DNA of 32,000 nt from Candidatus Bathyarchaeota archaeon. GTDB lineage: Archaea; Thermoproteota; Bathyarchaeia; Bathyarchaeales; Bathycorpusculaceae. Below, in pieces: positions 1 through 15,877 of the stretch. The notes below the pieces were generated by a model that worked only from the letters and a program-made list of their open reading frames with translations, did no database searches and was not told the DNA's origin. The translations under genes were made by a program, and so were the position numbers. Location: contig JAOZHU010000034.1 in assembly GCA_026014705.1 (NCBI GenBank), positions 12,081-44,080 on the forward strand, read 5' to 3'. Every line of letters starts with the position of its first letter. The stretch's first letter is position 1.

Positions 1-130
1 AAAGATTGCCTACAGAACAAGCAGGTCAAGCGGTTTCAGTTCGCCGTCCACAGGGTCAACCGCACACGCAACCCACAATCAACACAACAACAAACAAAAC
101 AGCACTACAAACTAACAACGCAACGCAGAA

Positions 131-216
131 CTATATAAAAGGGGATATAGACCACTCCGAGCACAACAGCGCCTATTTATAGTTTAAATAAGGGGCTATA
201 AATTTCTCAGCACGCG
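131..216. repeat. Left arm of an imperfect inverted repeat flanking the r-protein operon. It holds two tandem TATA-like/GGGG/CTATA units.
   Basis: 131-170 'ctatataaaaggggatatagaccactccgagcacaacagc' and 173-216 'ctatttatagtttaaataaggggctataaatttctcagcacgcg' both resemble the reverse complement of 3605-3697 ('acgctatttatagtatttaaaagggggctatagacaactcccagcacaaaacacgc'). Confidence 0.55.
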
Positions 217-217
217 T

Positions 218-622
218 TTACTTCAGCGGCACATACATCGAAGACCGAGAAGCACCGATACCAGGTGTACCATGCCGAACAGGCTTATTCGTAACCGCAA
301 ACTCGCCCAGATAATGCCCAATCATCTCAGGCCTTATCTCCATAGCCACAAACTCCTTCCCATTATGCACCATAATCCGAACACCAACCATCTCGGGAAG
401 AATAATCAAATCACGCACATGAGTCTTCAACGTCGCCTCCTTCCCAGCCTTCTGCGCCTCACGCACCACACGCAGCTTCTCCAGCAGAATCCTTTGCTCA
501 GGAGTCAAACCACGCTGCAAACTCCGCCTTTGACGAGCAGGCAACAAACCAATAAACTCATCCATAGACATCTCTAACAAACTCGCCAACGAATGACCAC
601 GATAACTGAAATCCTTCGGCAT
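218..622 (-). CDS. rps19: 30S ribosomal protein uS19 (S19p)
   Basis: 134-aa ORF with the S19/S15 core (...[24 protein letters not shown]...[20 protein letters not shown]...). It follows uL2 as in the conserved L3-L4-L23-L2-S19 order. ATG at 620-622, TAA stop. Confidence 0.95.
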
Positions 623-670
623 ACCCTACATCACCCTAAACCTAAACTTTAACCTCTATAAACCTTCCCA

Positions 671-1414
671 TCAACGAACAGCACGCTTCTTCTTCTGACC
701 AGGACCACGAGCCGCAATCAAACCCACCTTCTGACCAGGAGGCGCACCATGCGAAGTCGTCGTACACTTACGCGCACTACGCTTACTACTACCATACGGA
801 TGCGCCGCAGCCACCATCGCCCTGCCACGAGTCCTCGGATACTTGTGACCCTTAGCCTTCATCAAATGAAACACCTCACCAGCCTTCAAAAACGGCTTCT
901 CCGTCCGACCACCACCAGCAACCACGCCAACAGTAGCCAAACACAAATCAGAAACATAACGCGTACGACCACTAGGCAAACGAATCATAGCACCCTGCGG
1001 CGTATGCCCCACCACAGTCGCATAAGCCCCAGAAGACTTCGCCAACTTACCACCATCACCAGGCTTCAACTCTAAACCACAAACCAAAGTCCCCTCAGGC
1101 ATCTTACCCAAAGGCAAAACATTACCAACCTCAACCGAAGCCTTACCGCCAAGGCTAACCCGTTGACCCTTAGCTACACCCTCAGCAGCCACCAAATGGC
1201 AACATTCGCCACTGTCAAAGCGCACAAAAGCCAAAGGCGCACCGCGACCAGGATCATGCACTAAATCCTCAACCACACCGCTGAACACATCGTCAACACA
1301 ATCTTTAGGCGCAAACGAACGCGGATACAACGCAGCCGCAACACGCTTGTGAGTCGAAGCCCTGAAAGTCGAAGTACCACGCCCACGCCGCTGAACACGA
1401 ATCCGTCTACCCAT
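671..1414 (-). CDS. rpl2: 50S ribosomal protein uL2
   Basis: 247-aa ORF. N-terminus MGRRIRVQRRGRG and C-terminal ...HPYGSS...GAPPGQKVGLIAARG... are typical of L2. Operon position supports the call. Confidence 0.95.
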   Translation of the reverse strand: MGRRIRVQRRGRGTSTFRASTHKRVAAALYPRSFAPKDCVDDVFSGVVEDLVHDPGRGAPLAFVRFDSGECCHLVAAEGVAKGQRVSLGGKASVEVGNVLPLGKMPEGTLVCGLELKPGDGGKLAKSSGAYATVVGHTPQGAMIRLPSGRTRYVSDLCLATVGVVAGGGRTEKPFLKAGEVFHLMKAKGHKYPRTRGRAMVAAAHPYGSSKRSARKCTTTSHGAPPGQKVGLIAARGPGQKKKRAVR

Positions 1415-1441
1415 ACACCAACATCCTCCATAACAAAACTA

Positions 1442-1702
1442 TTACAGAATCCCCAGCTTGATAGCCACATCCGAAGCCCGAAACTCAGGCTTAAGCCTTA
1501 CAAAAGCCTTCTTCAAACCCTGCGGCGACACCAAAACCCGAACACTCTCCACCTTAACCTCATACAACTCCTCAACCGCACGCTTAACATCAGCCTTACC
1601 AGCCCGCATGTCAACCACAAAAATCAACTTATTATCCCGCTCAACCATCAAACTCGCCGACTCAGTCATCAACGGGTACAAAACAACATCCCCAACATCC
1701 AT
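1442..1702 (-). CDS. rpl23: 50S ribosomal protein uL23
   Basis: L23-like sequence (...VVLYPLMTESASLMVERDNKLIFVVD...KAFVRL...). I moved the start to the ATG at 1700-1702 (MDVGDVV...). It overlaps the rpl4 TGA (1702-1704) by one base (TGATG), which suggests translational coupling. Confidence 0.9.
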   Translation of the reverse strand: MDVGDVVLYPLMTESASLMVERDNKLIFVVDMRAGKADVKRAVEELYEVKVESVRVLVSPQGLKKAFVRLKPEFRASDVAIKLGIL

Positions 1703-2499
1703 CACGCAACCACTCCCACACTGCAAAGCTCACGCAAACGCTCAACCGCACCACGAGTCCAAACCGTCAAACGTCCCGCACAAGCGCCAGGCGCCAACAA
1801 CTCCGCATTCAAATCCCCAACCTTCACCACGCCCACACCAGGCAAATTACCAGCAGCCTCAACCAAACTACAATTCTCAGCAACCACAAACAACGGACCA
1901 ACAGCCTGCTTCATCTTACGCCCACGACGCTTGCCCTTACCAGCACGAATCTTGCGACTCGCACGCACACGCGAAACATCACCCAAAACACCCAAACGCC
2001 CAAGAACAGCCTCAACATCACGCGCCTTCCCCAACGCGCAGAAAGCATCATCCACAACCAAAGGAAACTCCGGAACACCCTCAACCGCATGCCCACGCGA
2101 AACCACAACATCGCGCGCTGCAGTAGCCGCAACCGCAGAAAACAAACCCAAACGAGCCTCCTTACTAGGAATCGCCTTAACAATACGCTTCGCAGAAACA
2201 GGCGGCTGCGGCTGCCGACCCCCAACAGTGCTGGGAGCAAAAGCTGCCCTGCCGCTTCCGCCTTTGATGCGGGGAACACGGGCAATTGCCATTCCTGTGC
2301 CGCGAGATTCGGCGCTTGTTCGTTTGCCAGCCATAGGGTCTCTGCCTTGAGGCTGCAGTCTGCGTGATTGGATAGATAATACGGCTCGTTTGATTACGTC
2401 TGGCCGCAAGGGTGTGGCGAAAACCTGTGGAAGCGTTATTGTGCCTACGGGTTTGCCTTCGAGGTTGTATATGTTGGCGGTTTTTTCTTTAGTGGGCAT
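1702..2499 (-). CDS. rpl4: 50S ribosomal protein uL4
   Basis: 265-aa ORF with the conserved L4 segment ...GRDPMAGKRTSAESRGTGMAIARVPRIKGG.... It lies between rpl3 and rpl23. Confidence 0.92.
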   Translation of the reverse strand: MPTKEKTANIYNLEGKPVGTITLPQVFATPLRPDVIKRAVLSIQSRRLQPQGRDPMAGKRTSAESRGTGMAIARVPRIKGGSGRAAFAPSTVGGRQPQPPVSAKRIVKAIPSKEARLGLFSAVAATAARDVVVSRGHAVEGVPEFPLVVDDAFCALGKARDVEAVLGRLGVLGDVSRVRASRKIRAGKGKRRGRKMKQAVGPLFVVAENCSLVEAAGNLPGVGVVKVGDLNAELLAPGACAGRLTVWTRGAVERLRELCSVGVVA

Positions 2500-2517
2500 T
2501 GTGTGTGTTCTCCATTG

Positions 2518-3531
2518 TTATTTTCCTTGAGGTGAATCCAGCGAGACGTAGGTGATTTGTGGTGGTTCTTCAGGTGTTTCTTTGGGTGGTCTTGCGGGGT
2601 ATCGTAGGCGTACTGTTCGTTTTTCGGTGCCTGGTACGCTGCCTTCAATTAGTATGTAGGGTCCTTTTATTGTGCCGTAGCGGGTGTAGCCGCCTTTGAC
2701 GGTGATTTCTTTGCCGTCTTTGCCGATTTTTAAAATGCGCTTGTTGTATTCTATGCGTTGGTGGTAGCCCATTTGTCCTGCTCTTGGGATGGAGTACATG
2801 AGGTGGTGTGGGTTCCATGGTCCGAGGGTGGCGATGCCGCGTTTTGTTTTTCTGCCTTTATGCTGCAGTTTGGTGACGTGCCAGCGTTTTACGGGTCCTT
2901 GGAAGCCTTTGCCTGTTGTGACTGCGGCGACGTCGATGTATTGACCGTTTTTGAATACTTCTTCGGCTGTGACGGTTTTTCCGAGGAGTTGCTTGGCGTA
3001 TTCTAGTTGTTGCGGGATTGTTGCGCCGCTGATTTGGATTTCGGTGATGTCGGGTTTCTTTTTGGAGAGGCTGGTTTGTTTGGGTTGCGTGGCAGCGATT
3101 ACGCGGAGCACAGCGATGTTTTCGAGTTGGTCGGTGAGTTTTTGGAGCATTTGTTCGGTGTCAAAGTTTTCCGGCAGCACAAGTGCGCGTTCGAGTTCGG
3201 CTGGCGGGTTTTTCATCCATGCCTCGGTTAAATGTTCAAGTCCATACGGTGTTTTTGTGTAGGCTCGTATGCCGAGTATGAGTATGGGTGGTGTTTCGAT
3301 TACTGTGGCGGCACGCATGACTTCTTTGCCGAAGTTCGGGCTGCGTTTTCGGTCTTCTATGGTGAAGATGAAGGTCATGCCTGCTTTGTAACCTGTGAAT
3401 GCTAAAAGCCTAGGTGTATCCGCGGTTATTTGTGGCCAGTAGCGTATGCGGGCTACGGGTTTTTTGGCGCGGTGTCTAGGCAAATATGCGAGTGAACCGT
3501 GTTTTGGGGCGTGTGTTTTTCTATGTCCCAT
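2518..3531 (-). CDS. rpl3: 50S ribosomal protein uL3
   Basis: L3 hallmark N-terminus MGHRKTHAPKHGSLAYLPR and ...TKGKGFQGPVKRWH.... Start moved to the ATG at 3529-3531 (10th codon of the track ORF). TAA stop. Confidence 0.93.
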   Translation of the reverse strand: MGHRKTHAPKHGSLAYLPRHRAKKPVARIRYWPQITADTPRLLAFTGYKAGMTFIFTIEDRKRSPNFGKEVMRAATVIETPPILILGIRAYTKTPYGLEHLTEAWMKNPPAELERALVLPENFDTEQMLQKLTDQLENIAVLRVIAATQPKQTSLSKKKPDITEIQISGATIPQQLEYAKQLLGKTVTAEEVFKNGQYIDVAAVTTGKGFQGPVKRWHVTKLQHKGRKTKRGIATLGPWNPHHLMYSIPRAGQMGYHQRIEYNKRILKIGKDGKEITVKGGYTRYGTIKGPYILIEGSVPGTEKRTVRLRYPARPPKETPEEPPQITYVSLDSPQGK

Positions 3532-3604
3532 GGGTGAATCCTTCGCGCTTCTTAGCAATGAGGATTTAGGGTTATAAATGTTGCCGTTTGTTTTGGGTTT
3601 AGTT

Positions 3605-3697
3605 GCGTGTTTTGTGCTGGGAGTTGTCTATAGCCCCCTTTTAAATACTATAAATAGCGTTGGAAGTGCTGTGCGGGATAGGCCCTCTATAGGTTTC
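3605..3697. repeat. Right arm of the inverted repeat flanking the r-protein operon. It overlaps the presumed rpl3 promoter.
   Basis: Reverse complement of 3605-3660 aligns with 173-216, and 3655-3697 aligns with the reverse complement of 131-181. Roughly two-thirds identity by eye. Contains 'ttttaaatactataaatag'. Confidence 0.55.
3640..3656 (-). promoter_or_regulatory. Candidate TATA box/BRE region of the rpl3 operon
   Basis: The minus strand reads 'ctatttatagtatttaaaaggggg', about 110-130 nt upstream of the rpl3 ATG. This is the only strong A/T box in the upstream intergenic region. The leader length is unusual, so confidence is moderate. Confidence 0.4.
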
Positions 3698-3805
3698 TGC
3701 ATTGAACTGCTAATAGGCTGCAAATATGATGGCGGAGGCTGTTGTCAGAGTAGTTGCCCGTGAGAGTTAGAGTGTTGAACGTTTTTTTGGGAGAGTCAGG
3801 GGATG

Positions 3806-3824
3806 AAAAAGATAAAAAAGAAAA
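3806..3824 (-). terminator. Oligo-T tract downstream of the zinc-ribbon gene (archaeal-type terminator candidate)
   Basis: The minus strand reads 'cttttcttttttatcttttt' about 40 nt after the TAA at 3864-3866. A T7 run on the + strand lies at 3782-3788. Confidence 0.35.
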
Positions 3825-3863
3825 GATTGGTTTGGATTTAAGTGAAGATGTTAGCTTGTAAGC

Positions 3864-4061
3864 TTAGTATCTTCGTGGGGGTCTTCTTTTTGTGTAGCAA
3901 TCTCGGCAGTATACTGGCCTGGTGCCGTCTGGTTTGAAGGGAACTTCGCATTCCTTTCCGCAGTCGGCGCAGGTTGCCTTGTGCATCTCTTTGCGGTACA
4001 TTTGTTCTGTTTCAACTCCTGTGTACTGTTCAGACAAAAATCGCTTTTTGCCAACCACCAC
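3864..4061 (-). CDS. Small zinc-ribbon protein of the CxxC-x17-CxxC type
   Basis: ...CADCGKECEVPFKPDGTRPVYCRDCY... has two CxxC pairs separated by 17 residues, followed by a basic tail. The start is uncertain (GTG at 4061 or ATG at 4001). Confidence 0.6.
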   Translation of the reverse strand: MVVGKKRFLSEQYTGVETEQMYRKEMHKATCADCGKECEVPFKPDGTRPVYCRDCYTKRRPPRRY

Positions 4062-4234
4062 TATAATCGCACACAGTATTAAACCTATGCATACAGAAAC
4101 AACAAACGTCCAACAAGTAACGCGTTCAAATTAGGCGAGGATTATAATTTGCAACATTGTATGCACCTAAGAAGAGTAAAAAGATGGGTTCATTAGTAGA
4201 ATAATCAATGCATGGGTGTCTTCTCTTCGGTGAC

Positions 4235-4852
4235 TCACAGTCTTGTTGCTTTCAGGAGGACTATTGTCTCGAAGAATGGCATAGCGGCTTCTGCAATTGC
4301 ACTTGCAGCGGAATGGCACTCCTCGAATGTTACTATTGTTTTATCTATAGATGCAAGTGTGGATTGCATTAAAAGAATTCGACCTTTTGGCTTCAAATGA
4401 TTTAAGGCTGCTGGAATAAATTGGTCGATGAGTTGTCTGCCTGTTGTGCCTCCTGTCCATGAGCGTTCAATCCAAGAAGCGCCTTCGTTCTCGTCTGTGG
4501 GCATGTAAGGAGCGTTGAAGAGAATGAGGTCGAACTTGGCTTTTTCGTTGAGTGATTTAAACAAGTCTCCCTGTACGAAAATCATTTTACTACGTACATT
4601 ATTGAGTGTTGCATTTTTTATTGCGTAATGTATAGCGTATGGATTAATATCGATTGCGACTACTTCGCTTGCTTTTTTAGCGGCTATTATGCCGAGTATG
4701 CCGCAGCCAGTGCCCATGTCCAGCACCCGTTCGCCTTCTTTCACGTCGAGGTTTTCGGCGAAGAGAAAAGAGTCTTCAGCGGGTTCGTATACGTTTTCAT
4801 CAACCACAAACACAAAATCTTCGAAAAACACACGTTTACGCCGTGAGGGCAT
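4235..4852 (-). CDS. HemK/PrmC-related (Mtq2-like) SAM-dependent methyltransferase
   Basis: SAM motif VLDMGTGCGILGI and a FNAPY (NPPY-type) motif. Start moved to the ATG at 4850-4852 (MPSRRKRVFFEDF...), overlapping the ksgA stop region by 17 nt. Confidence 0.75.
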   Translation of the reverse strand: MPSRRKRVFFEDFVFVVDENVYEPAEDSFLFAENLDVKEGERVLDMGTGCGILGIIAAKKASEVVAIDINPYAIHYAIKNATLNNVRSKMIFVQGDLFKSLNEKAKFDLILFNAPYMPTDENEGASWIERSWTGGTTGRQLIDQFIPAALNHLKPKGRILLMQSTLASIDKTIVTFEECHSAASAIAEAAMPFFETIVLLKATRL

Positions 4853-6285: not shown

Positions 6286-6627
6286 CTATTCCTTCGCTAC
6301 GCGATGCTCGTTTAAGAGCGCAACGACTGCTTCCAGCTTCGCGGTTTCGATGATTTTGCGTCCGCCAGCCAGAAAAATCCGCAGCTCGTCCACGCTTTCA
6401 GGCGCACAGTTAACCACTTGAACAGCCTCGTCCTCGTCTAACCCGAACTCCTTAACTAAACGCTCCAGAAGCCCGTCAACCGCTGCCTCATCAATCTTGG
6501 CGAACTTGGAAACGTAATCAAACGTGCGCCGCTGATACTGGTCCAACGACTCCTCGCCCATCGCAGCTAACTCTTTCTTAACCTGCGGCAGCGTCAACTT
6601 CTTCTCGCTTAACTCTCTTGTGCTCAT
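6286..6627 (-). CDS. rpoF: DNA-directed RNA polymerase subunit Rpo4 (RpoF)
   Basis: About 113 aa, acidic and helical (...LTLPQVKKEL...QRRTFDYVSKFAKID...). Position between rpl21e and DUF655 fits. I chose the ATG at 6625-6627 rather than the GTG at 6639. TAG stop. Confidence 0.7.
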   Translation of the reverse strand: MSTRELSEKKLTLPQVKKELAAMGEESLDQYQRRTFDYVSKFAKIDEAAVDGLLERLVKEFGLDEDEAVQVVNCAPESVDELRIFLAGGRKIIETAKLEAVVALLNEHRVAKE

Positions 6628-6631
6628 GCGC

Positions 6632-6931
6632 TTAAACACCGCCCTTATACGGCTCTAAATGCTCAGAACGCACAATGATTTCCTTAACCGCGTCGCCCTG
6701 AGGCACGCTCACCACGTAACCGCGACCCCGCTTAGCCTGAACCGTGCCGATTTTACCGTGAAAACGCTTATGAGGCAAACTCTTCTGCACGCTGGAATCA
6801 ATCTTCACAATCACCTGCGAACCAACCTCATACGCTATCAACAGTTTACCAAGTTTCGGCTTACCCCTCTCCCTCGGCGCCTTCGTAGCTAACCGACGCG
6901 AACCACGCCTGTAACCCTTCGACTTCTTCAC
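6632..6931 (-). CDS. rpl21e: 50S ribosomal protein eL21 (L21e)
   Basis: MKKSKGYRRGSR...HKRFHGKIGTV...RGRGYVV... are typical of L21e. The GTG start at 6929-6931 overlaps the pus10 TGA (GTGA). Confidence 0.9.
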   Translation of the reverse strand: MKKSKGYRRGSRRLATKAPRERGKPKLGKLLIAYEVGSQVIVKIDSSVQKSLPHKRFHGKIGTVQAKRGRGYVVSVPQGDAVKEIIVRSEHLEPYKGGV

Positions 6932-8280
6932 TTTTTCACCTCACCAACCTCATCCATGATAACGTTCAAAACATCCAGCTTAAGAGGCTTCGCTCGCTTA
7001 CCAAGCAACCCTGAAACACTGGGCTTTGTTCTTCCCTCATCACCTGATACCAGCTCTTTAACGTAAAGCCCTCCTTGGCAACGAATTTGAAGCTCAGCCA
7101 ACTTAGGCGACACCTTCTTAACTTTAACCCAGTATATGTACTTTTCCCGCATCAAATCCGCACGCCTATGCAAAACACGCAAAGGCGTCTGCTGCTTAAC
7201 CACAACATTGCTCAACTGACACGCCGCAGCCTGCAAATCCTCCTCAGACACATCCTCCTCAAACTCCGCCAAAACACGGTACTCCTTCTGCGCAGACTCA
7301 GCCTTCTTCAACCGTCGCACTACGACCTTGCTGGTGAAACGCAAATTCGAAACCTCAACCTTACCCGCCGCAGCAACGTTAATGGCTTCCTTAAGCTTAG
7401 GCAAATCCAAAAACCGCTTCCGCGGCTTAGAAACCTCCACCACAAAAGGCCTGCCACTGCCCAACATCCGCGCATCAATATCCTCCCTGCCAGAAGCATG
7501 AAAAGCCGTTCGCTCACCTTCAGCCGCCTCCAAAAGCGGCTTCGAAACAAACGCCTCCACCGACTCAGGATAAAGCAGCCCAGTTCCACCGCACTGCTCG
7601 CATCCTCGCCCACGACACCGCGAACAGAACCACTTCGACTGCGGAATATCCCTCACAAGCTTCCGATAACGACCAGCAACAAACAACGGATTCACCTGAA
7701 GCTTAACGCTCTCCGTGAACGGGTTAACAATAATAACCAAGTCAGGCGCACGATAATCCACCGTCTTACCCGACCTCGCCTCAACACCCTTCCCAATCAA
7801 CCGCCCAAACTCATGACGAATGCTTTCGCCGTAGCTAACATTATGCGCGGCTTTAAACTCGTCTTCCCGCTCCTCCACCTCAACAGGCAACTCCACGCCC
7901 ACAAGAAAACTAGTAAACTCGTAACCCTCAACCTCCGCCAAAGCCTTGCTAACCAGCCTGTCAACAGACTGAAACCTGCCTTCACATAGAAAACACGGTT
8001 GAACTTGCTTCGGCACACGCTTCTTCAAATGCCGCAGCGTCTCAGCAGCCTCACGACAAAAACCGTTAACCGCCAAAACCTTAAGGCTCCGCACTCCGCC
8101 AGCATCCTTCAACAGTGCAAAAGCACTAGCCTGCAAAGCTAAACTAAGCTTCAACGCCCTGCCCCGCTCACTGTTCGCCACATCATAGCCCAACAACGCA
8201 AACTGACGCCCCAAGCAATTATCGCACAAGGCATGCGCTTCAAGCAACTGCAAAGCCTTTTCCAAAACACTCATCAACAT
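6928..8280 (-). CDS. pus10: tRNA pseudouridine(54/55) synthase Pus10
   Basis: N-terminal Cys motifs (CDNC...CFLC), a central THUMP-like region, and the ...SGREDIDARMLGSGRPFVVE... catalytic segment characteristic of Pus10. Confidence 0.85.
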   Translation of the reverse strand: MLMSVLEKALQLLEAHALCDNCLGRQFALLGYDVANSERGRALKLSLALQASAFALLKDAGGVRSLKVLAVNGFCREAAETLRHLKKRVPKQVQPCFLCEGRFQSVDRLVSKALAEVEGYEFTSFLVGVELPVEVEEREDEFKAAHNVSYGESIRHEFGRLIGKGVEARSGKTVDYRAPDLVIIVNPFTESVKLQVNPLFVAGRYRKLVRDIPQSKWFCSRCRGRGCEQCGGTGLLYPESVEAFVSKPLLEAAEGERTAFHASGREDIDARMLGSGRPFVVEVSKPRKRFLDLPKLKEAINVAAAGKVEVSNLRFTSKVVVRRLKKAESAQKEYRVLAEFEEDVSEEDLQAAACQLSNVVVKQQTPLRVLHRRADLMREKYIYWVKVKKVSPKLAELQIRCQGGLYVKELVSGDEGRTKPSVSGLLGKRAKPLKLDVLNVIMDEVGEVKK

Positions 8281-8283
8281 AGC

Positions 8284-9618
8284 CTACTTAAAATCAGTCG
8301 GCAACCCTTTACCCATAAAAGGCAACCGCTTCTTCCGCTTAAACATCTTCAACATCTTACGCATCATCACATACTGCCGCAGCAAATCTTTCACATCTTT
8401 TTCAGCCGTTCCAGAGCCACGCGCCACGCGCCTAATCCGCGAAGAATTGAAAACCTTCGGGTTCTCCTTCTCCTCAACCCGCATCGACTGAATAATCACA
8501 CGCCACTTCTCAAGATTCGCCTCAGCCATATTCAACTTATCCTCAGGCAAATCATAAGACATCCCCGGAAGCATCTTAAGCACCTTCCGAAAAGGACCCA
8601 TGCTCTTAAACGCCTCAAACTGCTCGTACATATCTGTCAAAGTGAACTTGCCGCTGAGAATCGCTTTAGCTTTCTTCTCAGGAACCTTAATCTCAGCATC
8701 CCGAACCTTCTCCAAAAGCGTCTCCAAATCACCCATACCCAACAGGCGACCAACGAAACGTGAAGGGACAAAAGGCTCAAGGTCCTCAGTTTTCTCGCCA
8801 GTGCCAATGAACTTTATCGGCGCACCCGTCGCCGCAACCGCAGACAAAGCGCCGCCGCCCCTAGCAGAACCATCAAGTTTAGTAACCAAAATAGCACCCA
8901 CGGGCGTGGCTTCATGAAACGCCTTAGCCTGAATCAACGCTTGCTGCCCAATCGTGCCATCAATAACAAGCATGACCTCATCAGGCTTAATCTTCTTTTC
9001 CAAGTCCTTCATTTCCTTGATAAGATCCTGCTCTTCCTTGTGCCGTCCAGCCGTATCAACAATCACCAAATCCTTATCCGCAAACTGCTTCAAACCCGCA
9101 GAAACAACCTTCACTGGATCCTTAGCCTTCGGGTCGCCGTAAACTGGAAGATTCATGCGGTTCGCCAACTGCTGCAACTGCGCATACGCGCCTGGTCGAT
9201 AAGTGTCCGCGCAAATCAACGCAGGCTTAAGCCCCTTCCTTTGGAAGTACCGCGCAAGCTTGGCTGCAGCCGTAGTTTTCCCCGAACCCTGAATGCCGAC
9301 AAGCATGAGCACCTGTTTCTTGACGGGTTCAATTTTAACGGGAACAGGTTTCTCGCCTACGAAGCGGGTTAACTCCTCATAAACGACCTTTATCACGTGT
9401 TCGCGTCTGGAGATGCCTGGCGGAACTTTCTCCTTCAACGCACGTTCTTCCATTCGCTTGGATATGTCAAGAACCAACTGCACGTTTACGTCAGACTGCA
9501 ACAAGGCACGTTGGATGTCGCGCACGAGCTCTTTAACCGTAGCCTCGTCTACTACGGAAGCCCTGAAAAGCTTCTTCACGGCGCTGGTAAGCGAGGAACC
9601 TAAGCGGTCTAAAGCCAT
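8284..9618 (-). CDS. srp54: Signal recognition particle protein SRP54
   Basis: N domain; G domain with GIQGSGKTT, DTAGR and TKLDG motifs; Met-rich C-terminal M domain. TAG stop. Confidence 0.95.
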   Translation of the reverse strand: MALDRLGSSLTSAVKKLFRASVVDEATVKELVRDIQRALLQSDVNVQLVLDISKRMEERALKEKVPPGISRREHVIKVVYEELTRFVGEKPVPVKIEPVKKQVLMLVGIQGSGKTTAAAKLARYFQRKGLKPALICADTYRPGAYAQLQQLANRMNLPVYGDPKAKDPVKVVSAGLKQFADKDLVIVDTAGRHKEEQDLIKEMKDLEKKIKPDEVMLVIDGTIGQQALIQAKAFHEATPVGAILVTKLDGSARGGGALSAVAATGAPIKFIGTGEKTEDLEPFVPSRFVGRLLGMGDLETLLEKVRDAEIKVPEKKAKAILSGKFTLTDMYEQFEAFKSMGPFRKVLKMLPGMSYDLPEDKLNMAEANLEKWRVIIQSMRVEEKENPKVFNSSRIRRVARGSGTAEKDVKDLLRQYVMMRKMLKMFKRKKRLPFMGKGLPTDFK

Positions 9619-10176: not shown

Positions 10177-10569
10177 CTATTTTGCTCTGGCTAGTTTTAT
10201 TCTACCCATTATCTTCCAGTACTCGATTTCAGCACCCGCAACCAGCTTAGCCTTCAACTCCTCTTCATCAGGAAACGGCGCATCCAAATACTCAAACGTC
10301 TCCAAATCCATTATTTGGACGCCGTTAGGGTTCACAGCGAACACTTGCCCTACCCTCTTGTCGATTATTGGAACCTCAGCGTTGCTGTCCACAGGCTTAA
10401 CAAACTGGCGTTTCTGGTTATCGAATACACCGATGGCGACTATTCTTGCTTTGGCTGAACCATGTTTGCCGGGTTTAGATTTGGTTACGTCCATTATGCG
10501 GCATGGTTCGCCGTCAATTATCATGTAGCCTCCGACTCGTAATTCGCCTACACTCACGGGTTTGGTCAT
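10177..10569 (-). CDS. eif5a: Translation initiation factor 5A (aIF5A)
   Basis: ...GGYMIIDGEPCRIMDVTKSKPGKHGSAKARIV... contains the hypusine-loop motif. 130 aa. TAG stop. Confidence 0.93.
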   Translation of the reverse strand: MTKPVSVGELRVGGYMIIDGEPCRIMDVTKSKPGKHGSAKARIVAIGVFDNQKRQFVKPVDSNAEVPIIDKRVGQVFAVNPNGVQIMDLETFEYLDAPFPDEEELKAKLVAGAEIEYWKIMGRIKLARAK

Positions 10570-10618
10570 GCTCTCACCAAATGCCTAATCATTAGAAGCA
10601 TTTCTGAACAACATCCAT

Positions 10619-10632
10619 ATATAGATTAAGGT
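10619..10632 (+). repeat. 14-bp direct repeat, left copy (candidate attL)
   Basis: Exact 'atatagattaaggt', repeated at 23382-23395 in the same orientation. It lies 37 nt from the 3' end of the integrase gene. Confidence 0.5.
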
Positions 10633-10669
10633 TTTACTGCCAGCATATATATCTAGTTTGGAGTCGTTT

Positions 10670-11950
10670 TCATTTGCGTTTTCTGAAAAGCTTCTGGCCT
10701 TCCATTTCTGTCACGTATTCAAAGCCTACTTCTAAGAGTTTGCATGCTTCTTCAACGGTCGATGCGACTTTGACTATGTAGTCGTTGGAGCTTTCGCCGA
10801 ACGCCATCTTCTCCAAGTTGACGTAGATCTGCGTGGTGAGGACGCTTTTGTGCCCCAGCAGTTTTGAGATATAGAAGATGTCGGGTTTTTTGTGGTACTG
10901 CATTGTTGCGTACCAGTGGCGGATGAGATGGAAGTGTATCTTTGCGATGCGTGGATTGCTTAGTCGGTGAGCGATGCGCCTTCTCTGGTTGATCAGGCAC
11001 CATGTTGCGCTGCTTTTGTTCATTCTACCGAAGACCGTGTCGTTTTCTCTTCTCAGGTTGCTTAGCATGCTTATCAGCACTGTTGATACGGCGAAGACGC
11101 GGGGTAAGCTGTGTTTCTCTGCTTTGCGTAGCGTAATTGTGCGCATGTCAAAGTTTATGCATGCCCAAGTTAAGCTTAGGCATTCGCCCAGTCGCATTCC
11201 TGTTTCTTTCATCAGCTGCAGTAAGGCGCTGAGTCTTTTTGCTGAGCCGGTTATGAGTGCGTCGATTTCAGCTTCGGTTGGTAGGAATTCCGGCAGTTTC
11301 TCGATGTAGTCGTATTTTGGCGGTGCCCAAGTTTTGCCAAGGAACGTTAGAAATTTAGTGTAGGCGCAGGAGTAGACGAATTTTGTGTTTTCAACCAAGT
11401 TCATTTTTGCGAGGGCTTCTTTTACATTTTCAGGGTCGTTTATGTTGGCGTGTCTTGCAATGCTGCGGAGGGCAGTGTTGAAGGTTTTGACTGTTGAGTC
11501 GGATAAGCCGTCTTTTTGGCAGTAGAGCGCGAACTGGAGCAGTTTACCTTTGACGTCTGCATCAGTGATTTGCCCCATTCCCGCAACGGTTTTTGTTTCC
11601 GCTGCAGTTTCCAAATTTTTCGCTTCCTCGATGGTTGCGCATATTTGGCGTTTAGAAACTATGGCTGTCTCGGTATTTATTGACCATTTTGAATTTTCTT
11701 TTGGTGGTTTTTCGGTGAATCTGTAGTTGCAGTTCCTGCAGAGCCAACGCTGAAACACTGAACCATCAGGATAATAGCGTTGACCGTCACGGTAGAGACT
11801 GCTTAACCCGCACTCTGGACACGTAACGGCATGATCGGCTTGGTTGCTTGAAGTCTCGTGGCCATGCTGAGGCTCACCTTCTCGGTTAACTTTGCCCTTG
11901 AAGCGCAAGTGAGAAGATTCGGGGCTACTTGGAGCCTCAGCTTCAGCCAT
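10670..11950 (-). CDS. Tyrosine recombinase/integrase with N-terminal zinc ribbon
   Basis: CPECG...CRNCNYRF zinc ribbon. C-terminal catalytic region ...TGMRLGECLSL...HLIRHWYAT...LLGHKSVLTTQIYV... gives the R..H-x-x-R..H..Y pattern of XerC/D-like integrases. The ATG overlaps the upstream stop (TAATG). Confidence 0.9.
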   Translation of the reverse strand: MAEAEAPSSPESSHLRFKGKVNREGEPQHGHETSSNQADHAVTCPECGLSSLYRDGQRYYPDGSVFQRWLCRNCNYRFTEKPPKENSKWSINTETAIVSKRQICATIEEAKNLETAAETKTVAGMGQITDADVKGKLLQFALYCQKDGLSDSTVKTFNTALRSIARHANINDPENVKEALAKMNLVENTKFVYSCAYTKFLTFLGKTWAPPKYDYIEKLPEFLPTEAEIDALITGSAKRLSALLQLMKETGMRLGECLSLTWACINFDMRTITLRKAEKHSLPRVFAVSTVLISMLSNLRRENDTVFGRMNKSSATWCLINQRRRIAHRLSNPRIAKIHFHLIRHWYATMQYHKKPDIFYISKLLGHKSVLTTQIYVNLEKMAFGESSNDYIVKVASTVEEACKLLEVGFEYVTEMEGQKLFRKRK

Positions 11951-12135
11951 TAGCGGATGAACCCTCTTTTACGTTTTATACCCGTTATGTTGCTGGACGG
12001 CAGATCAGGTGAAGCTGTGCCAACTGAATGGTTACGGTGCGCGTACCTAAAAGGGCTTATCTGAATCGTTCTGTTTTCGTTCAAGTTGATGCTAGCAACG
12101 GTTACGGTTCCACGCTGCTTGCCTGTTCGTCTCAT
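11950..12135 (-). CDS. Hypothetical small basic protein, translationally coupled to the integrase
   Basis: 61-aa ORF. Its TAA overlaps the integrase ATG, and its own ATG lies 2 nt after the upstream small ORF stop. No family recognised. Confidence 0.4.
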   Translation of the reverse strand: MRRTGKQRGTVTVASINLNENRTIQISPFRYAHRNHSVGTASPDLPSSNITGIKRKRGFIR

Positions 12136-12137
12136 TG

Positions 12138-12281
12138 TTAGGCATCCTCCGATGGCTTTTCCTTGTGCTCGTAATCGTCGAGATGTTCATCCATGATCTG
12201 CCATGCTTCTTCTCGGGCAATCCGACGAATCAATTCAACGAGAAGCGCATGATCCACTTTTTCCTCAGTCAACTTTGCCAT
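12138..12281 (-). CDS. Hypothetical 47-aa helical protein (below the ORF-track cutoff)
   Basis: Hand translation gives MAKLTEEKVDHALLVELIRRIAREEAWQIMDEHLDDYEHKEKPSEDA. GGAGG lies directly upstream of the ATG at 12279-12281. TAA at 12138-12140. It sits inside the co-directional operon. Confidence 0.3.
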   Translation of the reverse strand: MAKLTEEKVDHALLVELIRRIAREEAWQIMDEHLDDYEHKEKPSEDA

Positions 12282-13290
12282 TCCTCCGTGAGCAGTTCAT
12301 TAGGCAAAAGCCAAGTTTGCGGATAGTTGCGCATCTATAGGGTCGATAATTTCGAGCCAAAAGGTCTCTGATGTAGTAGAGGCTTTTTTCAAAGCTGTAA
12401 TCGGTCTGGTTCTTGAAGAGTTCGGCGGTTTGCTCTGCAGAAAAGCCCTTGTTCAAGAATTCGGTGGCTATGGCAATCCGCATCCCATGCCCAGCAACGC
12501 CTGATAAATCAGCACACAGTGCCGCGTCAATGCAGGGTCTTATTTGCCCATGCCTCGCCGAGTTGTAACGGTAGGCGATCCGTCGGGTTTTCTGTTGGAT
12601 TTTGCTTTGGCATAGTCCGCAAAAATCTTCTGTTAACCCCTGCTCTTTAAATGGTGTTATGCAGTTCAGGATTAGGCTTTCTCGGTCTACGTTTACGGGT
12701 GTGCATGGTTTGAGGCTTTTTTCGTGAATCGAGTAAGGTACCCTTGCTAACCGCTTTATGTCACCTAGAACCTGTCGATCCAAGGTTTGGAATAAGAAGC
12801 CTTTAAGGAGCAGTTCCTATGCTGTCTGGTAGAACGTTTTTGCGGTTTGGGCTGAATCAAAGTGTTCTGTTTTTTGGAGCCAAACGTAGATGTTGTAGCC
12901 TTTCGAGCCGCTGAAGCATACAAGCGGTTTAACGCCGTAACTTTCTTGTAGCACCGTAGCAAGCGTGTTTGCTTCTTTCCAAGCAAGGCTAAGGTCTGGG
13001 CTGTCAAAGTCAAAGAACAGCTTTTCTACAGCGGAAACGCTGTTGCGTCCGTTGAAGGGTTGAACGCTCATCCAAGCCGGAGCACGATTCCTCATGCACC
13101 AAGCGAGGTATTCTTCGAAAGCTACGGGAGAGGTTAGGAAAACTCGGTCGCCATTGAAGACTTCCCGCCCATAATTAGCTGTCTGGAACCATGAACGCCA
13201 AAAGCTCTGATCCTGCAGTGCGTCTAAGTTTTGGTTAGTCGTGGTGTTCCCTCCATTCTGCCCCTGTAAACGTGCGCTTGAGCGCGTCAA
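12265..13290 (-). pseudogene. Archaeo-eukaryotic primase (PrimPol/PriS-like) fused to a PriL-CTD-like Fe-S domain, interrupted by one in-frame TAG (12817-12819)
   Basis: Upstream part: ...EKLFFDFDSPD... (DxD motif) and ...VCFSGSKGYNIYVWL... (motif II). After the TAG, in the same frame: ...LDRQVLGDIKRLARVPYSIHEKS... (motif III). Then ...RPCIDAALC...GHGMRIAIATEFLNKGFSAEQTAELF...YYIRDL...YRCATIRKLGFCLMNC, which resembles the 4-Cys PriL C-terminal domain. The start is uncertain (TTG at 13290, overlapping the helicase 3' end). Confidence 0.7.
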
Positions 13291-15214
13291 AGCATGAGGG
13301 GCATTTGCTTAGAACATCTCCCTGAGGCGTCACTACTTTGTATCCAGCTTTCTTGGTGCATGAAGAGCAATCGCTTGAAGTATCCTGCCAGTACACGAAA
13401 AGGTGCTTTGGTGGGGCTGCTGGGTCACGGGAGTCACGCAGGTCACGGTTTTCCTGCACGGTGAAGTTACTGCTTTGGGAAGAAGAAGACAAATCCCTGC
13501 CGCTACTGTTGTCTTCTTCTCTTTCTTTCTGCTCTGAAGTTGGATTGAAAGAAGAAAAAACGTCTCTGCTGCCAAAAATTGCTATTTTTTCTTCTTCTCT
13601 TCGCGGAGATAGTCCTGTGCTGTTTTCTTTATCGCGCATAAAAACCGTGACTCCCGTGACCTCCGTGACCAACTTATCTCTAAGAAGGCTCTGAGTTTGG
13701 AAAACGCTTTTTGGAACGTAGTCTACGATGAATTCTTTCAGTCGCTTCTCTAATCGTTCAGGTTCGAAGAAGATGACTCGGTATGATTTGCCGCCGTCTT
13801 TGATGAAGGGAGGTAACCCGGTGCTGGCGATGTTTAGGCTTTTGATTGCTTTGCGGATTGATTGGCTACTCCATTTGAAATGCAAAGCCAAGTCGGATGT
13901 GGTTAGGGGCTTGCATTCTAAACGTTCGTTTTGGTCTTGCCCTTCCGCGTCTGCCGCTTCTAGGAAGTAGTATGTGTTGGACTGCCAATGTTTAAAGAGA
14001 CCTTCGTTGATTTTTTCCCAGAAATAGTTGACGAGTAAGCCGTCCATGCTGTTGGTTTTTTCTTCAATTTTGAGTTTCTGAACTGCCCGGGCTGTTTCGG
14101 TTATGGTTTCTTTGAGCGTTGGCTCGTAGCGTGAAAGCGCCAAGAGCGGAAGCAAACTTGCAATTAAGCGGTGGTCGATTAGCTCGTCTATCCATGAGTC
14201 TTTTTTGATGGTTATCTCTTGGTGGTATCGCATGCGCAGGTAGAGGAGTTTGTTTTGGAACGCTAGGCCTTCTCTTAGCATTTCGTCGGTCTCTATGACA
14301 GGCAGACGCTTGTCGCTGGCTTCACTGTAGAAGGGTAGGGCGCGGCTTTCGGTGGCGTTGTCGTCAAAGGGTTTGCGCTGCGTCAAAATGGTTAAGCCGA
14401 AGTTGGTGAAGGTGTCCGTTATCCGCGGATTCTTAGGGTTCTGTCTGCTCAGTGGCGTTCCTGTGGCGCGGCAGTTAAGGAAATGCACAAGTTCGCTCTT
14501 CTCATTTGTGTTAGCAAAATCCGCCTCATCCAAAACTAGAGTTCCTTGCCAGAGATCTAGTGGACGGTAGAGGCTGGGGATTCTGTGCGTGGACATTTCA
14601 AAGTAGGGTCTGTAGCTGAGCGTTCTCAGCAGGAAGGCTAAGCGGTTTTTACCCGACTGGCTTGGTCCTCTTATGGGGATGATAGGCGCGAATTTGCCTG
14701 CGCCTGCCACGTCGTATTGGGGATTAGTGATGAAGCGGTCGAGGAACCATGAGCCCACGGTTATTCGGGTTAGGAGTCGTATCATGGCGTCTCTGCCGCA
14801 TGAATCGTAAGCTCTTTGGATGTATTCGTCTATCTCAGAGAAGACCTGTTTGAATGTGGTCTCGGTTACACCTGAAGGGAGCAGAACGAGACCTTTTCTT
14901 AGGGCATCGTTGTCTACGGGGCAGTAGATGATTTTTCTGCCTTTGCCGTCGACTTCGCCTAGGTCTATTTGGGCGGCTTGCTCAACCTTGCCTAAGCTGT
15001 AGTGGTAGATTAGGTATTGGGGTGGGTCTTTGCGGTTCCAGATTTCCTCAGCCAAAAAATCATCTGTAGCAACGGTTGGCTTGGGAATTAGAATCGTTTT
15101 TTCTATGTCTGCTTGGCACTTGGGGCACTTTTTGGCGTTGCGCTGTACTGATGCGCCGCAGTGTGGGCATTGGGTTTTATCCGGTTGACTGCTGCAGTGT
15201 TTGTTTTCTGCCAT
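13235..15214 (-). CDS. Putative replicative helicase/NTPase (SF3-like P-loop) with N- and C-terminal zinc ribbons
   Basis: CPHCG...CPKCQ at the N-terminus. Walker A is RGPSQSGKN and Walker B is LVLDEADF about 35 residues later, with a possible motif C (LTILTQ). A low-complexity linker follows, then C-terminal CSSC...CPSC. AGGAG lies 12 nt upstream of the ATG. Confidence 0.7.
   Translation of the reverse strand: MAENKHCSSQPDKTQCPHCGASVQRNAKKCPKCQADIEKTILIPKPTVATDDFLAEEIWNRKDPPQYLIYHYSLGKVEQAAQIDLGEVDGKGRKIIYCPVDNDALRKGLVLLPSGVTETTFKQVFSEIDEYIQRAYDSCGRDAMIRLLTRITVGSWFLDRFITNPQYDVAGAGKFAPIIPIRGPSQSGKNRLAFLLRTLSYRPYFEMSTHRIPSLYRPLDLWQGTLVLDEADFANTNEKSELVHFLNCRATGTPLSRQNPKNPRITDTFTNFGLTILTQRKPFDDNATESRALPFYSEASDKRLPVIETDEMLREGLAFQNKLLYLRMRYHQEITIKKDSWIDELIDHRLIASLLPLLALSRYEPTLKETITETARAVQKLKIEEKTNSMDGLLVNYFWEKINEGLFKHWQSNTYYFLEAADAEGQDQNERLECKPLTTSDLALHFKWSSQSIRKAIKSLNIASTGLPPFIKDGGKSYRVIFFEPERLEKRLKEFIVDYVPKSVFQTQSLLRDKLVTEVTGVTVFMRDKENSTGLSPRREEEKIAIFGSRDVFSSFNPTSEQKEREEDNSSGRDLSSSSQSSNFTVQENRDLRDSRDPAAPPKHLFVYWQDTSSDCSSCTKKAGYKVVTPQGDVLSKCPSCFDALKRTFTGAEWREHHD
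13423..13450. repeat. Iteron set 1: three GTCAC(G) units at a 9-nt period
   Basis: 'ggtcacgggagtcacgcaggtcacggtt', with GTCAC at 13424, 13433 and 13442. It matches the reverse complement of 13643-13670 at 23 of 28 positions. Confidence 0.6.
13643..13670. repeat. Iteron set 2: three GTGAC units at a 9-nt period, inverted relative to set 1
   Basis: 'aaccgtgactcccgtgacctccgtgacc', with GTGAC at 13647, 13656 and 13665. Confidence 0.6.
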
Positions 15215-15229
15215 CCGGTGGGGGGTCTC

Positions 15230-15598: not shown

Positions 15599-15600
15599 GT

Positions 15601-15777: not shown

Positions 15778-15877
15778 TTTTGTTCACCTTTGTTTGCACA
15801 ACACTTAAGAGTAAAGTTGGCTGCCAATAGACTGCAAAGGTTCCAACTTGGAAACTCGAGTGTACGGAGGCATTTCT

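Follow-up and report, generated by a model that had tools for sequence, protein, structure and literature searches.

Skews in strand composition are used to locate replication origins and transcription starts and as evidence on how mutations arise, and four described systems come closest to the locus reported here. At replication origins, both the bacterial and archaeal oriC and the N-domain borders of mammals, the composition of a strand steps from A+C-rich to G+T-rich, with G/C and T/A pairs both affected and with reverse-complement symmetry. Transcription-associated asymmetry is known from bacteria and metazoa as an excess of G+T on the non-template strand, and from GC-skewed, R-loop-prone regions after promoters, and its accepted cause is C>T and A>G change on the exposed strand. 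In vertebrate mitochondria, the heavy strand is G+T-rich through single-strand exposure, with both transitions on one strand, a shifted amino-acid composition, a single genome-wide polarity and a gradient with single-stranded time. Invertible segments, such as invertons and the flip-flop isomers of chloroplast and 2-micron DNA, are flanked by repeats in which crossover yields both orientations. The operon described here resembles each of these in part, and its composition steps from one state to the other inside the gene rpl4. To our knowledge, no known mechanism accounts for this jump.

The ribosomal-protein block and its inverted repeats

The window, the whole 32,000-nt stretch analysed, is from Candidatus Bathyarchaeota archaeon (GCA_026014705.1, contig JAOZHU010000034.1, positions 12,081-44,080, forward strand) and carries a five-gene block, S19-L2-L23-L4-L3, with all genes on the minus strand and each confirmed by Pfam. 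These are rps19 (uS19; 218-622; PF00203, E 6e-30), rpl2 (uL2; 671-1414; PF03947, E 6e-37), rpl23 (uL23; 1442-1726 for the open-reading frame as listed; PF00276), rpl4 (uL4; 1702-2499; PF00573) and rpl3 (uL3; 2518-3531; PF00297, E 5e-88, with alignment to relatives). Gene calls in relatives give an 86-residue rpl23 product starting at the rpl4 stop codon, and the true rpl23 start is thus probably near 1702. The rpl3 reading frame reaches 3558, with the ATG at 3531 being the start conserved in relatives. The 265-residue rpl4 product is identical to a protein (P0001) of a Bathyarchaeota MAG at NCBI. Archaeal promoter and terminator assignments were made by eye. The TATA-box-like element CATTTATAACCC (3569-3580, minus strand), 41-47 nt upstream of the rpl3 ATG, is identical in an alignment of the window, L161 and L164, and is the probable promoter of the operon. 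L161 is one of three assemblies (L161-L163) of the same population from three JGI samples, with 99.9-100% mutual identity, and L164 is one of four assemblies (L164-L167) of a third species.

An inverted-repeat search returned two matches in the window, with none expected, and the two arms flank the block: the right arm lies downstream of rps19 (99-200, with the core CTATTTATAGTTTAAATAAGGGGCTATA at 173-200) and the left arm upstream of rpl3 (3624-3730, core 3629-3657). The corresponding repeats are 106 nt with 92% identity in L164, and the arms in L161 are 64 nt and 32 nt. The left arm of the window matches, reversed, the L161 arm downstream of rps19 (window 28273-28377 in reverse-complement coordinates against L161 12403-12302, 81%). 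The orientation of the rpl3-rps19 block differs within one species, L164, L165 and L166 having one orientation and L167 the other; between them, 8.5 kb of flanking sequence is 100% identical, the block shows a single difference other than in the repeats, and the crossover falls within the repeat. A Pfam scan of the window ORFs revealed no recombinase adjacent to the block. An integrase at 10670-11950 is part of an inserted element 7 kb away. The flanking repeats are present too in lineages without a G+T-rich arm.

A strand-composition flip inside rpl4

The initial annotation, made from the letters of the sequence alone, claimed a sharp reversal of third-position composition within an intact rpl4 and supported it with hand counts of codons; exact counts, a change-point analysis and a sliding-window calculation of the kind it proposed all agree, confirming that the flip is real. 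On the coding strand, 82% of third positions are A or C in rpl3 and rpl4 codons 1-85 (A.41, C.41, G.10, T.08 before the switch), and 93% are G or T from rpl4 codon 92 through rps19 (G.45, T.48, A.03, C.05 after it), with a third-position keto index of -0.68 for L3, +0.87 for L23, +0.81 for L2 and +0.85 for S19. Lysine is encoded by 29 AAA and 3 AAG in L3, by 6 AAA and no AAG in L4 codons 1-85, by no AAA and 10 AAG in L4 codons 92-265, and by 1 AAA and 18 AAG in L2. The keto skew of the plus strand, (G+T-A-C)/N, calculated in 200-nt windows, lies between -0.42 and -0.54 over 1400-2200 and between +0.30 and +0.44 over 2300-3200, crossing zero in 2200-2300. The maximum-likelihood change-point falls at L4 codon 85-86 (2242-2247); its 2-lnL support interval covers codons 83-91 (about 2227-2253), and its dlnL is 331 against a maximum of 11.6 in 2000 permutations. 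From this analysis and the codon strings, the polarity switch is placed at 2227-2250 (minus strand, rpl4 codons about 84-91), in the sequence coding for the conserved ...RIKGGSGRAAFAPSTVGG... loop, and the jump from A/C-rich to G/T-rich synonymous sites is completed within eight rpl4 codons. The 265-residue protein is intact.

Two domains of opposite composition meet at the switch. Arm 1 (1-2230) has an A+C-rich plus strand and a G+T-rich coding (minus) strand, with a keto skew of -0.26 to -0.54, and contains rpl4 codons about 91-265, rpl23, rpl2 and rps19, followed by 217 nt or more of non-coding DNA. It continues beyond the left end of the window, and in its last 90 nt, past the repeat, the coding strand has only 7% A and 7% C. 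Arm 2 (2250-3950) has a G+T-rich plus strand and an A+C-rich coding strand, with a keto skew of +0.21 to +0.44, and contains rpl4 codons 1-85, rpl3, all 330 nt of non-coding DNA upstream of rpl3, where G makes up 12% of the coding strand, and the 3' half of a Zn-ribbon gene; it returns to neutral some 1.7 kb from the switch. A T7 run near its outer end (3782-3788, plus strand) would be a terminator-like signal for any leftward (antisense) transcript. The domains extend only 1.7-2.2 kb per side, and their flanks are neutral or opposite in sign. The skew also creates long spurious antisense ORFs, such as one of 333 aa at 1349-2350.

The bias is one of DNA composition rather than of codon choice. 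Four-fold boxes use both A and C, or both G and T; across the switch, Leu CTC gives way to TTG and Arg CGC/AGA to CGT/CGG, and the amino acids change as well, with more Val (5% to 12.3%) and less Thr (9% to 3.5%) and Ile (7.3% to 2.7%). Intergenic DNA has the same skew as synonymous sites, and across 114 lineages the skew of the non-coding DNA upstream of rpl3 correlates with that of rpl3 third positions (rho 0.42, p 4e-6). In relatives, a NUDIX gene on the opposite strand inside such a domain has a coding third-position index of -0.81 in L161 and -0.50 in L164, while its neighbours have +0.6 to +0.9. Translational codon-usage bias, which had already been judged an inadequate explanation in the initial annotation, was rejected on these grounds: non-coding DNA is skewed alike, amino acids shift, the opposite-strand gene is reversed, and both members of four-fold pairs are in use.

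The flip recurs in related lineages. L161-L163 align with the window at 83.4% identity as a single colinear HSP across the block (3.4 kb between the window and L161, spanning the junction) and flip at the same codon. Seven other lineages (L088, L003, L051, L135, L006, L093 and L092) flip likewise at codons 84-95, and other Bathyarchaeia flip at the same place or at a few other sites; in L164-L167 the junction is at another site, and the switch site varies between close lineages. Switch points cluster in conserved protein motifs, namely L4 codons 84-95, L4 about codon 223 and the Gly-rich region of L2. The polarity is identical in every case, and a G+T-rich rpl3 or rpl4 N-terminus was seen in none of more than 160 lineages examined. 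An A+C-rich 5' region is found class-wide, with a mean third-position index of about -0.4 in L3 and the L4 N-terminus against about -0.1 downstream (107 loci), and in L004 about 97% of third positions are A or C over L4, L23 and half of L2. In L161, the G+T-rich arm ends about 2.1 kb from the switch, and three upward jumps of this kind occur about 8 kb apart with neutral zones between them. The same order along transcription, A+C-rich and then G+T-rich, recurs in SRP54 and S6e-eIF2gamma of relatives.

The two states differ mainly by transitions. The purine/pyrimidine class of four-fold sites is conserved at 57-74% between orthologous segments in the G+T and A+C states, compared with 67-79% between segments in the same state. 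Between the window and L161, four-fold identity is 0.58 in the A+C-rich arm and 0.77 in the G+T-rich arm, against about 0.35 and 0.44 expected by our own estimate from third-position frequencies, indicating much synonymous turnover since the two diverged, and yet purity remains 82-93% on both sides of the shared border. The transition relation, together with borders that outlast such turnover, points to a maintained, in-situ, strand-asymmetric substitution regime. Such a regime, with deamination as its putative chemistry, was among the candidates of the initial annotation, and it is the one best supported by the predominance of transitions and by a border shared at about 83% identity. What is shown is a reproducible, transition-based flip at the level of composition, which does not depend on gene orientation and is stable between species.

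Mechanisms that may set the border

Our tentative preference is for a maintained, inherited border between two short domains under opposite strand pressure, in which transcription or R-loops expose opposite strands. In each arm, C>T and A>G transitions would steadily enrich one DNA strand in G and T, and purifying selection would keep the proteins, leaving the bias visible in non-coding DNA, at synonymous sites and in those amino-acid changes that are tolerated. On both sides of the switch, the G+T-rich strand points outward in its 5' to 3' direction, suggesting that the favoured strand is set by polar, RNA-polymerase-linked single-stranded exposure; we infer that the cause is exposure of single strands and that transcription or R-loops bring it about. 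Rightward, sense transcription of the operon from rpl4 codon ~90 to past rps19 would expose the coding strand; leftward, an opposing process, for which untranslated antisense transcription or R-loops across rpl3 and the operon leader are the most plausible candidates, would expose the other strand, and the switch would be the point where one exposure regime yields to the other. This reading is consistent with the strongly skewed genes, which mostly have a G+T-rich coding strand (L21e, Pus10, SRP54, Rpb4, DUF655, S27, S24e, Spt4 and Rpb7), and with skew that runs into the 3' non-coding tail and fades near unit ends.

Several observations count against it. The coding-strand G+T excess seen from the rpl4 C-terminus to rps19 and in most neighbouring skewed genes is reversed in rpl3, the rpl4 N-terminus, S6e and the 5' half of eIF2gamma, while sense transcription alone predicts a single sign, since rpl3, rpl4 and rpl2 share an operon. 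The switch is GC-rich coding sequence, and no clear TATA box for an antisense start was found there. Over 2481-3520, the plus strand has 12 terminator-like T5-T6 runs, against 8.5 in synonymous shuffles, so that a long antisense transcript would be chopped. Some 250 nt of arm 2 lie upstream of the repeat-borne promoter-like element, where sense transcription may be absent, and the transcription-associated skews known elsewhere are an order of magnitude weaker.

An alternative that we consider unlikely is that DNA synthesis initiates at or near the switch, whether origin-like, primed by recombination or R-loops, or as repeated strand-specific repair synthesis, with the outward strands differing in error or exposure in the manner of leading and lagging strands at a replication origin. 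The polarity was noted from the outset as that of an origin or a divergent-transcription point, and the skew does go from minus to plus on either strand with step-like sharpness, as at an archaeal oriC. The pattern also survives inversion of the block, which does happen; the multiple jumps in L161 would be accommodated; and GC3 is near 0.5 with about equal C>T and A>G effects, which an asymmetry of G.T mispairs during synthesis would also fit. An archaeal oriC, however, has an AT-rich unwinding element and origin-recognition boxes in non-coding DNA, and the switch shows neither: it lies in rpl4 coding sequence with a GC of 0.58-0.59, with only low-complexity repeats at chance level in 1900-2600. 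No orc1/cdc6 gene was found by Pfam among 30 ORFs of the window (those up to 28.9 kb, less a few short ones), the cumulative skew has no global minimum at the switch, the skew is of kilobase rather than replichore scale, and close lineages differ in switch site. Improbable, in our estimate, is a recombinant mosaic, in which homologous recombination replaced the 3' or 5' part of the block with an allele that had become oppositely skewed elsewhere, for example in the inverted orientation, with crossover in the most conserved stretch of rpl4. Recombination between lineages of opposite orientation had been put forward in the initial annotation, and part of it stands: inverted repeats flank the block, both orientations occur within one related species (L164 against L167), switch points concentrate in conserved motifs, and window-L161 four-fold identity is higher in the G+T-rich arm. 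Inversion, however, leaves the minus-to-plus pattern unchanged, the lineages examined offer no whole-block donor class, and random exchange would be expected to yield both polarities. Nor did ortholog alignment match the two halves to different lineages: L002 and L004 match the window's L3 and L2 best, and for S19 they come within 3 points of the top match. Conservation of the purine/pyrimidine class extends across both states, and a border this sharp after so much turnover would need differing in-situ pressures anyway.

Very improbable is selection on the nucleic acid itself, for an unstructured, G-poor, terminator-free 5' mRNA, for R-loop avoidance, or for translation speed through Watson-Crick-decoded as opposed to wobble-decoded codons. 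The class-wide A+C-rich 5' region is in keeping with it, as A+C-rich RNA cannot self-pair, and on the sense strand of the G+T-rich arm T runs of at least 4 are slightly rarer than expected (5 against 8.3, P 0.06). But the skew reaches non-coding DNA upstream of promoter-like elements, the bias is reversed in opposite-strand genes inside a domain, amino-acid composition shifts along with it, inter-arm complementarity does not exceed that of synonymous shuffles, there is no Rfam match, and no translational reason for a step within a gene is obvious. We give a still smaller chance to cDNA-mediated conversion, in which reverse transcription of deaminated operon mRNA, starting at the 3' end, yields a copy that recombines into the chromosome and leaves A>G and C>T on the sense strand along a tract anchored at the 3' end and variable in length. 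It would account for a G+T-rich state that is always 3', including the 3' untranslated tail, with a 5' limit varying by lineage, and for an opposite-strand NUDIX gene that takes the sign of its operon; it leaves unexplained the equally extreme A+C-rich state, as in L004, and its extension into upstream non-coding DNA. No reverse transcriptase was found by Pfam among the scanned window ORFs, and we know of no archaeal precedent. An assembly chimera, another early suggestion, is essentially refuted; it would have fused two populations at a conserved k-mer. The junction does lie in conserved sequence, and the window's own species is represented by one contig in the protein collection, but the same-codon junction is present in three assemblies of a different species (L161-L163) and in several GTDB MAGs, and a junction at another site in all four assemblies of the third.

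Beyond exposure by transcription or R-loops at this one site, it is possible, though doubtful, that some Bathyarchaeia chromosomes carry kilobase-scale, heritable domains of strand asymmetry at least as strong as that of animal mitochondria, with borders inside essential genes and kept across species, the rpl4 site being one conserved border. An undescribed polar process acting on one strand would set such borders, for example self-reinforcing R-loop domains from G+U-rich RNA or dispersed local starts of DNA synthesis.

Comparison with described systems

The locus presents a near-saturated skew with plateaus of about 2 kb and a step inside an essential gene, kept over species divergence in an uncultured archaeal class. 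Such a case suggests that a local strand-specific process can dominate sequence and amino-acid evolution far beyond what cellular chromosomes are known for, and the region about 2240 and its orthologues offer a concrete, mappable site for what exposes or copies one archaeal strand. In practice, the skew distorts binning and HGT calls based on codon usage or composition, and biases ribosomal-protein phylogenies via convergent amino-acid drift.

Compared with the skew jumps of replication origins, which it resembles in the direction of the step, in the involvement of both base pairs and in its symmetry, the rpl4 locus has arms of only about 2 kb, lies in GC-rich coding DNA of an essential gene without ORB/DUE elements or, among the ORFs scanned, orc1/cdc6, has flanks that do not continue the skew, and moves between close lineages. 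With transcription-associated asymmetry it shares a G+T-rich coding strand in expressed units and domains of about transcription-unit size, including untranslated tails, but it is far stronger (93% G/T at third positions), the 5' 1.6 kb of the operon is reversed, and the switch is inside a gene without a visible promoter. Synonymous saturation is comparable to or greater than that of vertebrate mitochondria, with both transitions likewise on one strand and amino-acid composition shifted, and a simple equilibrium estimate puts the asymmetry of the two arms at about 12-fold and about 4.6-fold; here, however, a cellular chromosome carries a kilobase-scale mosaic of plateaus and steps in place of one polarity and a gradient. 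As in invertible segments, repeats of about 30-106 bp flank the rpl3-rps19 block, and both orientations occur in one species through crossover inside the repeat, but the segment holds an essential ribosomal-protein operon with a probable promoter of its own and no adjacent invertase, and the composition flip stands here as a separate observation.

The ribosomal-protein block and its polarity switch

Pfam searches confirmed rps19, rpl2, rpl23, rpl4, and rpl3, all on the minus strand at window 218–3531, with genes for a Zn-ribbon protein, a methyltransferase, KsgA, DUF655, Rpb4, L21e, Pus10, SRP54, and aIF5A lying 5′ of this block on the same strand. The host organism is, on sequence grounds, a member of the Bathyarchaeia. 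Its L3 protein is 75–87% identical to those of 80 GTDB species representatives, nearly all labelled Bathyarchaeia or Bathyarchaeota with few exceptions, and an identical copy of its L4 protein is recorded once, on one contig of an NCBI Bathyarchaeota MAG. Exact-protein look-ups for the window's own contig recovered neither sequence further left nor another assembly. The motif ACGGCAACATTTATAACCCTAAAT at 3569–3580, 40–60 nt 5′ of the rpl3 ATG, is near-identical in the window and in the related loci L161 and L164, within non-coding DNA that has diverged among the three, and is a probable promoter of the operon. An Rfam search of window 1–4300 for known RNA families returned none at E ≤ 1, and no tRNA genes were found within the window.

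Keto skew, (G+T−A−C)/N, on the plus strand was about −0.45 as far as position 2200 and took values of +0.3 to +0.44 between 2300 and ~3900; skew elsewhere in the window is far less extreme than in the block. On the coding strand, 82% of third positions are A or C in rpl3 and codons 1–85 of rpl4 (AAA:AAG 35:3, GAA:GAG 23:1), versus 93% G or T from rpl4 codon 96 to rps19, where the same ratios are 1:44 and 1:34. A single change-point model placed the switch at rpl4 codon 85–86 (support, codons 83–91; window ~2227–2253), with a ΔlnL of 331 versus at most 11.6 across 2000 permutations; by eye, codons 84–90 are mixed and a run of G/T-ending codons begins at codon 91. The sharp flip of sign within rpl4 described in the initial annotation was thereby recovered, the sliding-window skew also crossing over between 2200 and 2300, and its hand counts for rpl2 and rpl3 were close to the exact values of AAG:AAA 18:1 and AAA:AAG 29:3, respectively. 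The plus strand also carries spurious antisense open-reading frames (1349–2350, 1458–2126, and 749–1075), the longest of 333 aa; the A+C-rich strand is nearly free of stop codons, and such skew-made frames are a likely pitfall for gene callers on genomes of this kind.

Regional extent and conservation of the skew

Translational selection, which had been discounted at the outset, is ruled out by skew in intergenic DNA, by the reversed bias of an opposite-strand gene, and by the use of both pair members of four-fold boxes in each state. On the coding strand, G makes up 12% of the 330 non-coding nt 5′ of rpl3, while A and C each make up 7% of the 90-nt non-coding tract past rps19. Across 114 lineages, the 5′ non-coding skew correlates with the keto skew at third codon positions of the coding strand (k3) of rpl3 (rho 0.42, p = 4e-6), and the domain starts ~350 nt 5′ of the ATG in 21 lineages that are strongly skewed but fall outside the clade of the window. 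A NUDIX gene (L161 17826–18260; L164 3954–4388) sits on the opposite strand within the skewed operon PIN-Rpb7-Spt4-DUF359-S24e-S27 and has a k3 of −0.81 in L161 and −0.50 in L164, versus +0.6 to +0.9 for its neighbours, which shows that the skew is regional and independent of each gene's own orientation. Across the switch, synonymous first positions shift as well (Leu CTC to TTG; Arg CGC/AGA to CGT/CGG), as does amino-acid usage, with Val rising from 5% to 12.3% and Thr and Ile falling from 9% to 3.5% and from 7.3% to 2.7%, respectively. A bisulfite-like conversion artefact was rejected, since the first two positions of codons keep their C and depletion affects A too.

The switch recurs in related lineages. 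In L161, L162, and L163, from three JGI samples with mutual identity of 99.9–100% and belonging to a species distinct from that of the window, the block aligns with the window as a single colinear HSP of 3.4 kb at 83.4% identity and switches at the same codon (k3 −0.49 before, +0.88 after). A third species, sampled four times (L164–L167), is A+C-rich to rpl4 codon ~138, mixed to ~222, and G+T-rich from 223. It had been suggested initially that the switch might be an assembly chimera of two populations; the same-codon flip in L161–163 and the flip elsewhere in rpl4 in the four assemblies L164–167 contradict this, and the switch is almost certainly not such a chimera. In L001, L002, and L004, the A+C-rich state extends to rpl2 codons ~108–163. 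At rpl4 codons 84–95, six more distant loci (L051, L135, L006, L093, L092, L103) pass from strongly A+C-rich to neutral, and L003 and L005 pass from weakly A+C-rich to G+T-rich. Mean k3 over 107 loci is about −0.4 in rpl3 and the 5′ part of rpl4 and about −0.1 downstream, so an A+C-rich 5′ domain is a feature of the whole class. An extreme G+T-rich state of the 3′ domain is peculiar to the window's clade. The strongly skewed clade was taken to comprise the window, L161, L164, L081, L085, and L088.

Third-position strings of other L161 genes likewise run from A+C-rich to G+T-rich along transcription, as in the block. SRP54 (2075–3409) changes at ~codon 210. In eIF2gamma (18265–19524) the shift to G+T-rich is gradual, over ~codons 200–300, and S6e is A+C-rich. 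A hypothetical 138-aa gene (14696–15112) has a sharp reverse step at ~codon 85. On the top strand of L161, the skew jumps upward at ~2.7, 10.25, and 18.9 kb and is neutral in the stretches between, and most strongly skewed genes have a G+T-rich coding strand. The next most skewed region of the window, at 6600–9200, forms a graded hump that spans L21e, Pus10, and SRP54, with a G+T-rich coding strand and k3 of up to +0.64; since it includes Pus10, a low-expression tRNA pseudouridine synthase, bias tracks region or operon rather than expression class. Within a DUF2070 membrane-protein gene (26847–28673, minus strand), AT skew spikes to +0.47 at 28000–28500 and keto skew is −0.38 at 28201–28400.

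The window's aIF5A gene (10177–10569) contains a pure G/T third-position run of ~27 codons, and ~12.8 kb (~10600–23300) separates it from the NAD kinase gene (23412–24263), a gap of only 84 nt in L165. This insert, which carries a tyrosine integrase (10670–11950), primase-polymerase fragments (12265–13290), a 659-aa Zn-ribbon protein, an IS110-family transposase (16812–17906), and TrmB regulators, is probably an integrated mobile element. Minus-strand genes in its left half (10670–15706) have A+C-rich coding strands, with k3 of −0.15 to −0.40.

Inverted repeats around the block

Inverted repeats at window 99–200 and 3624–3730 enclose the block; their core, CTATTTATAGT(T/A)T..A.AAGGGG, has two matches in the window where none is expected by chance. 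The corresponding arms in L164 (8767–8872 and 12298–12403) are 106 nt long and 92% identical. In L167, from another sample, the flanks are 100% identical to those of L164 over 8.5 kb and the block is inverted. Its sequence differs only once outside the repeats, and the crossover falls within the repeat. In this species, the orientation of an essential ribosomal-protein operon is thus a polymorphism of recent origin. The minus-to-plus skew is invariant under this inversion. External directional processes, among them fork direction and read-through from convergent flanking genes, would cancel out or produce the reverse sign. The repeats were rejected as a sufficient cause of the switch, as they also flank the block in L010, L043, and L014, which have no G+T-rich arm. 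The switch lies off-centre between the two repeats, and any causal link from repeats to switch is hypothetical.

Candidate processes and known systems

Comparison of orthologous segments bears on how the two states arose and are kept. Purine/pyrimidine class is kept at 57–74% of four-fold sites encoding the same amino acid when G+T-state and A+C-state segments are compared, and at 67–79% in same-state comparisons. Between the window and L161, four-fold identity was 0.58 for the A+C arm (the 5′ part of rpl4, rpl3, and upstream) and 0.77 for the G+T arm (the 3′ part of rpl4 to past rps19), versus ~0.35 and ~0.44 expected from composition alone by our estimate from third-position frequencies, which indicates much synonymous turnover; despite it, purity has stayed at 82–93% in both species to each side of the shared switch codon. 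A recombinant mosaic is decidedly unlikely, since a fossil junction would have decayed, and the two arms must be under different, ongoing substitution pressures. In-situ strand-asymmetric substitution with a sharp border, proposed initially in the form of deamination, is the best supported of the initial candidates, as the states are mostly transition-related and the border has held through the turnover. By our simple equilibrium estimate from third-position frequencies, strand asymmetry amounts to ~12-fold for the G+T arm and ~4.6-fold for the A+C arm; C>T and A>G would act at about equal effective rates, and GC3 stays near 0.5. Selection at the nucleic-acid level would be a very unlikely source of the two states, and cDNA-mediated conversion a highly improbable one. 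Long-range pairing of the A+C-rich half of the mRNA with its G+U-rich half was rejected for want of excess complementarity, the best ungapped score being 11 versus 11.7 ± 1.3 for synonymous shuffles.

On both sides of the switch, the G+T-rich strand points 5′ to 3′ outward, a sign that, by reasoning, three types of process would yield: DNA synthesis initiated in both directions, divergent transcription or R-loops, and inward resection from breaks at the block ends. Resection from breaks at the repeats fits the sign but predicts a gradient, a soft crossover, and a repeat-side maximum and switch; the plateaus, the step of at most 8 codons, and the neutral nearest outer flanks speak against it. 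Protein-primed, panhandle, and strand-displacement models were rejected by reasoning only, as they give the opposite polarity. Local initiation of DNA synthesis matches in sign and sharpness, but the arms extend just ~2 kb, the flanks show no continued skew, the switch itself falls in repeat-free, GC-rich coding sequence, and no orc1/cdc6 gene was found among the 30 ORFs scanned in the window, making an origin unlikely. A transcription-linked process is favoured, as the domains match transcription units in size and take in untranslated tails, coding strands are G+T-rich as a rule, and the opposite-strand gene embedded in an operon is reversed. We read the switch, tentatively, as a product of transcription or R-loops. 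This reading requires a further process that runs leftward over rpl3 and the leader and overrides sense transcription. Antisense RNA that is not translated could plausibly fill this role, since it would be free to form R-loops. The plus strand over rpl3 (2481–3520) contains 12 T5–T6 runs, which weakens the case for a single long antisense RNA. G-clusters, putative R-loop starts, occur at the borders, although similar clusters also occur where there is no flip.

No earlier description of such a switch was found in searches of the literature on Bathyarchaeota skew, archaeal keto skew, archaeal R-loops and GC skew, or deamination-linked strand asymmetry. As strand-asymmetric substitution with a polarity switch, it belongs to a recognised kind, known from origins, transcription starts, and mitochondrial DNA. 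It fails the tests that define origins and shows only part of what defines transcription-associated skew. Unlike these systems, it combines saturation at the mitochondrial level in a kb-scale mosaic with a step that falls within an essential gene and a border that is stable across species.
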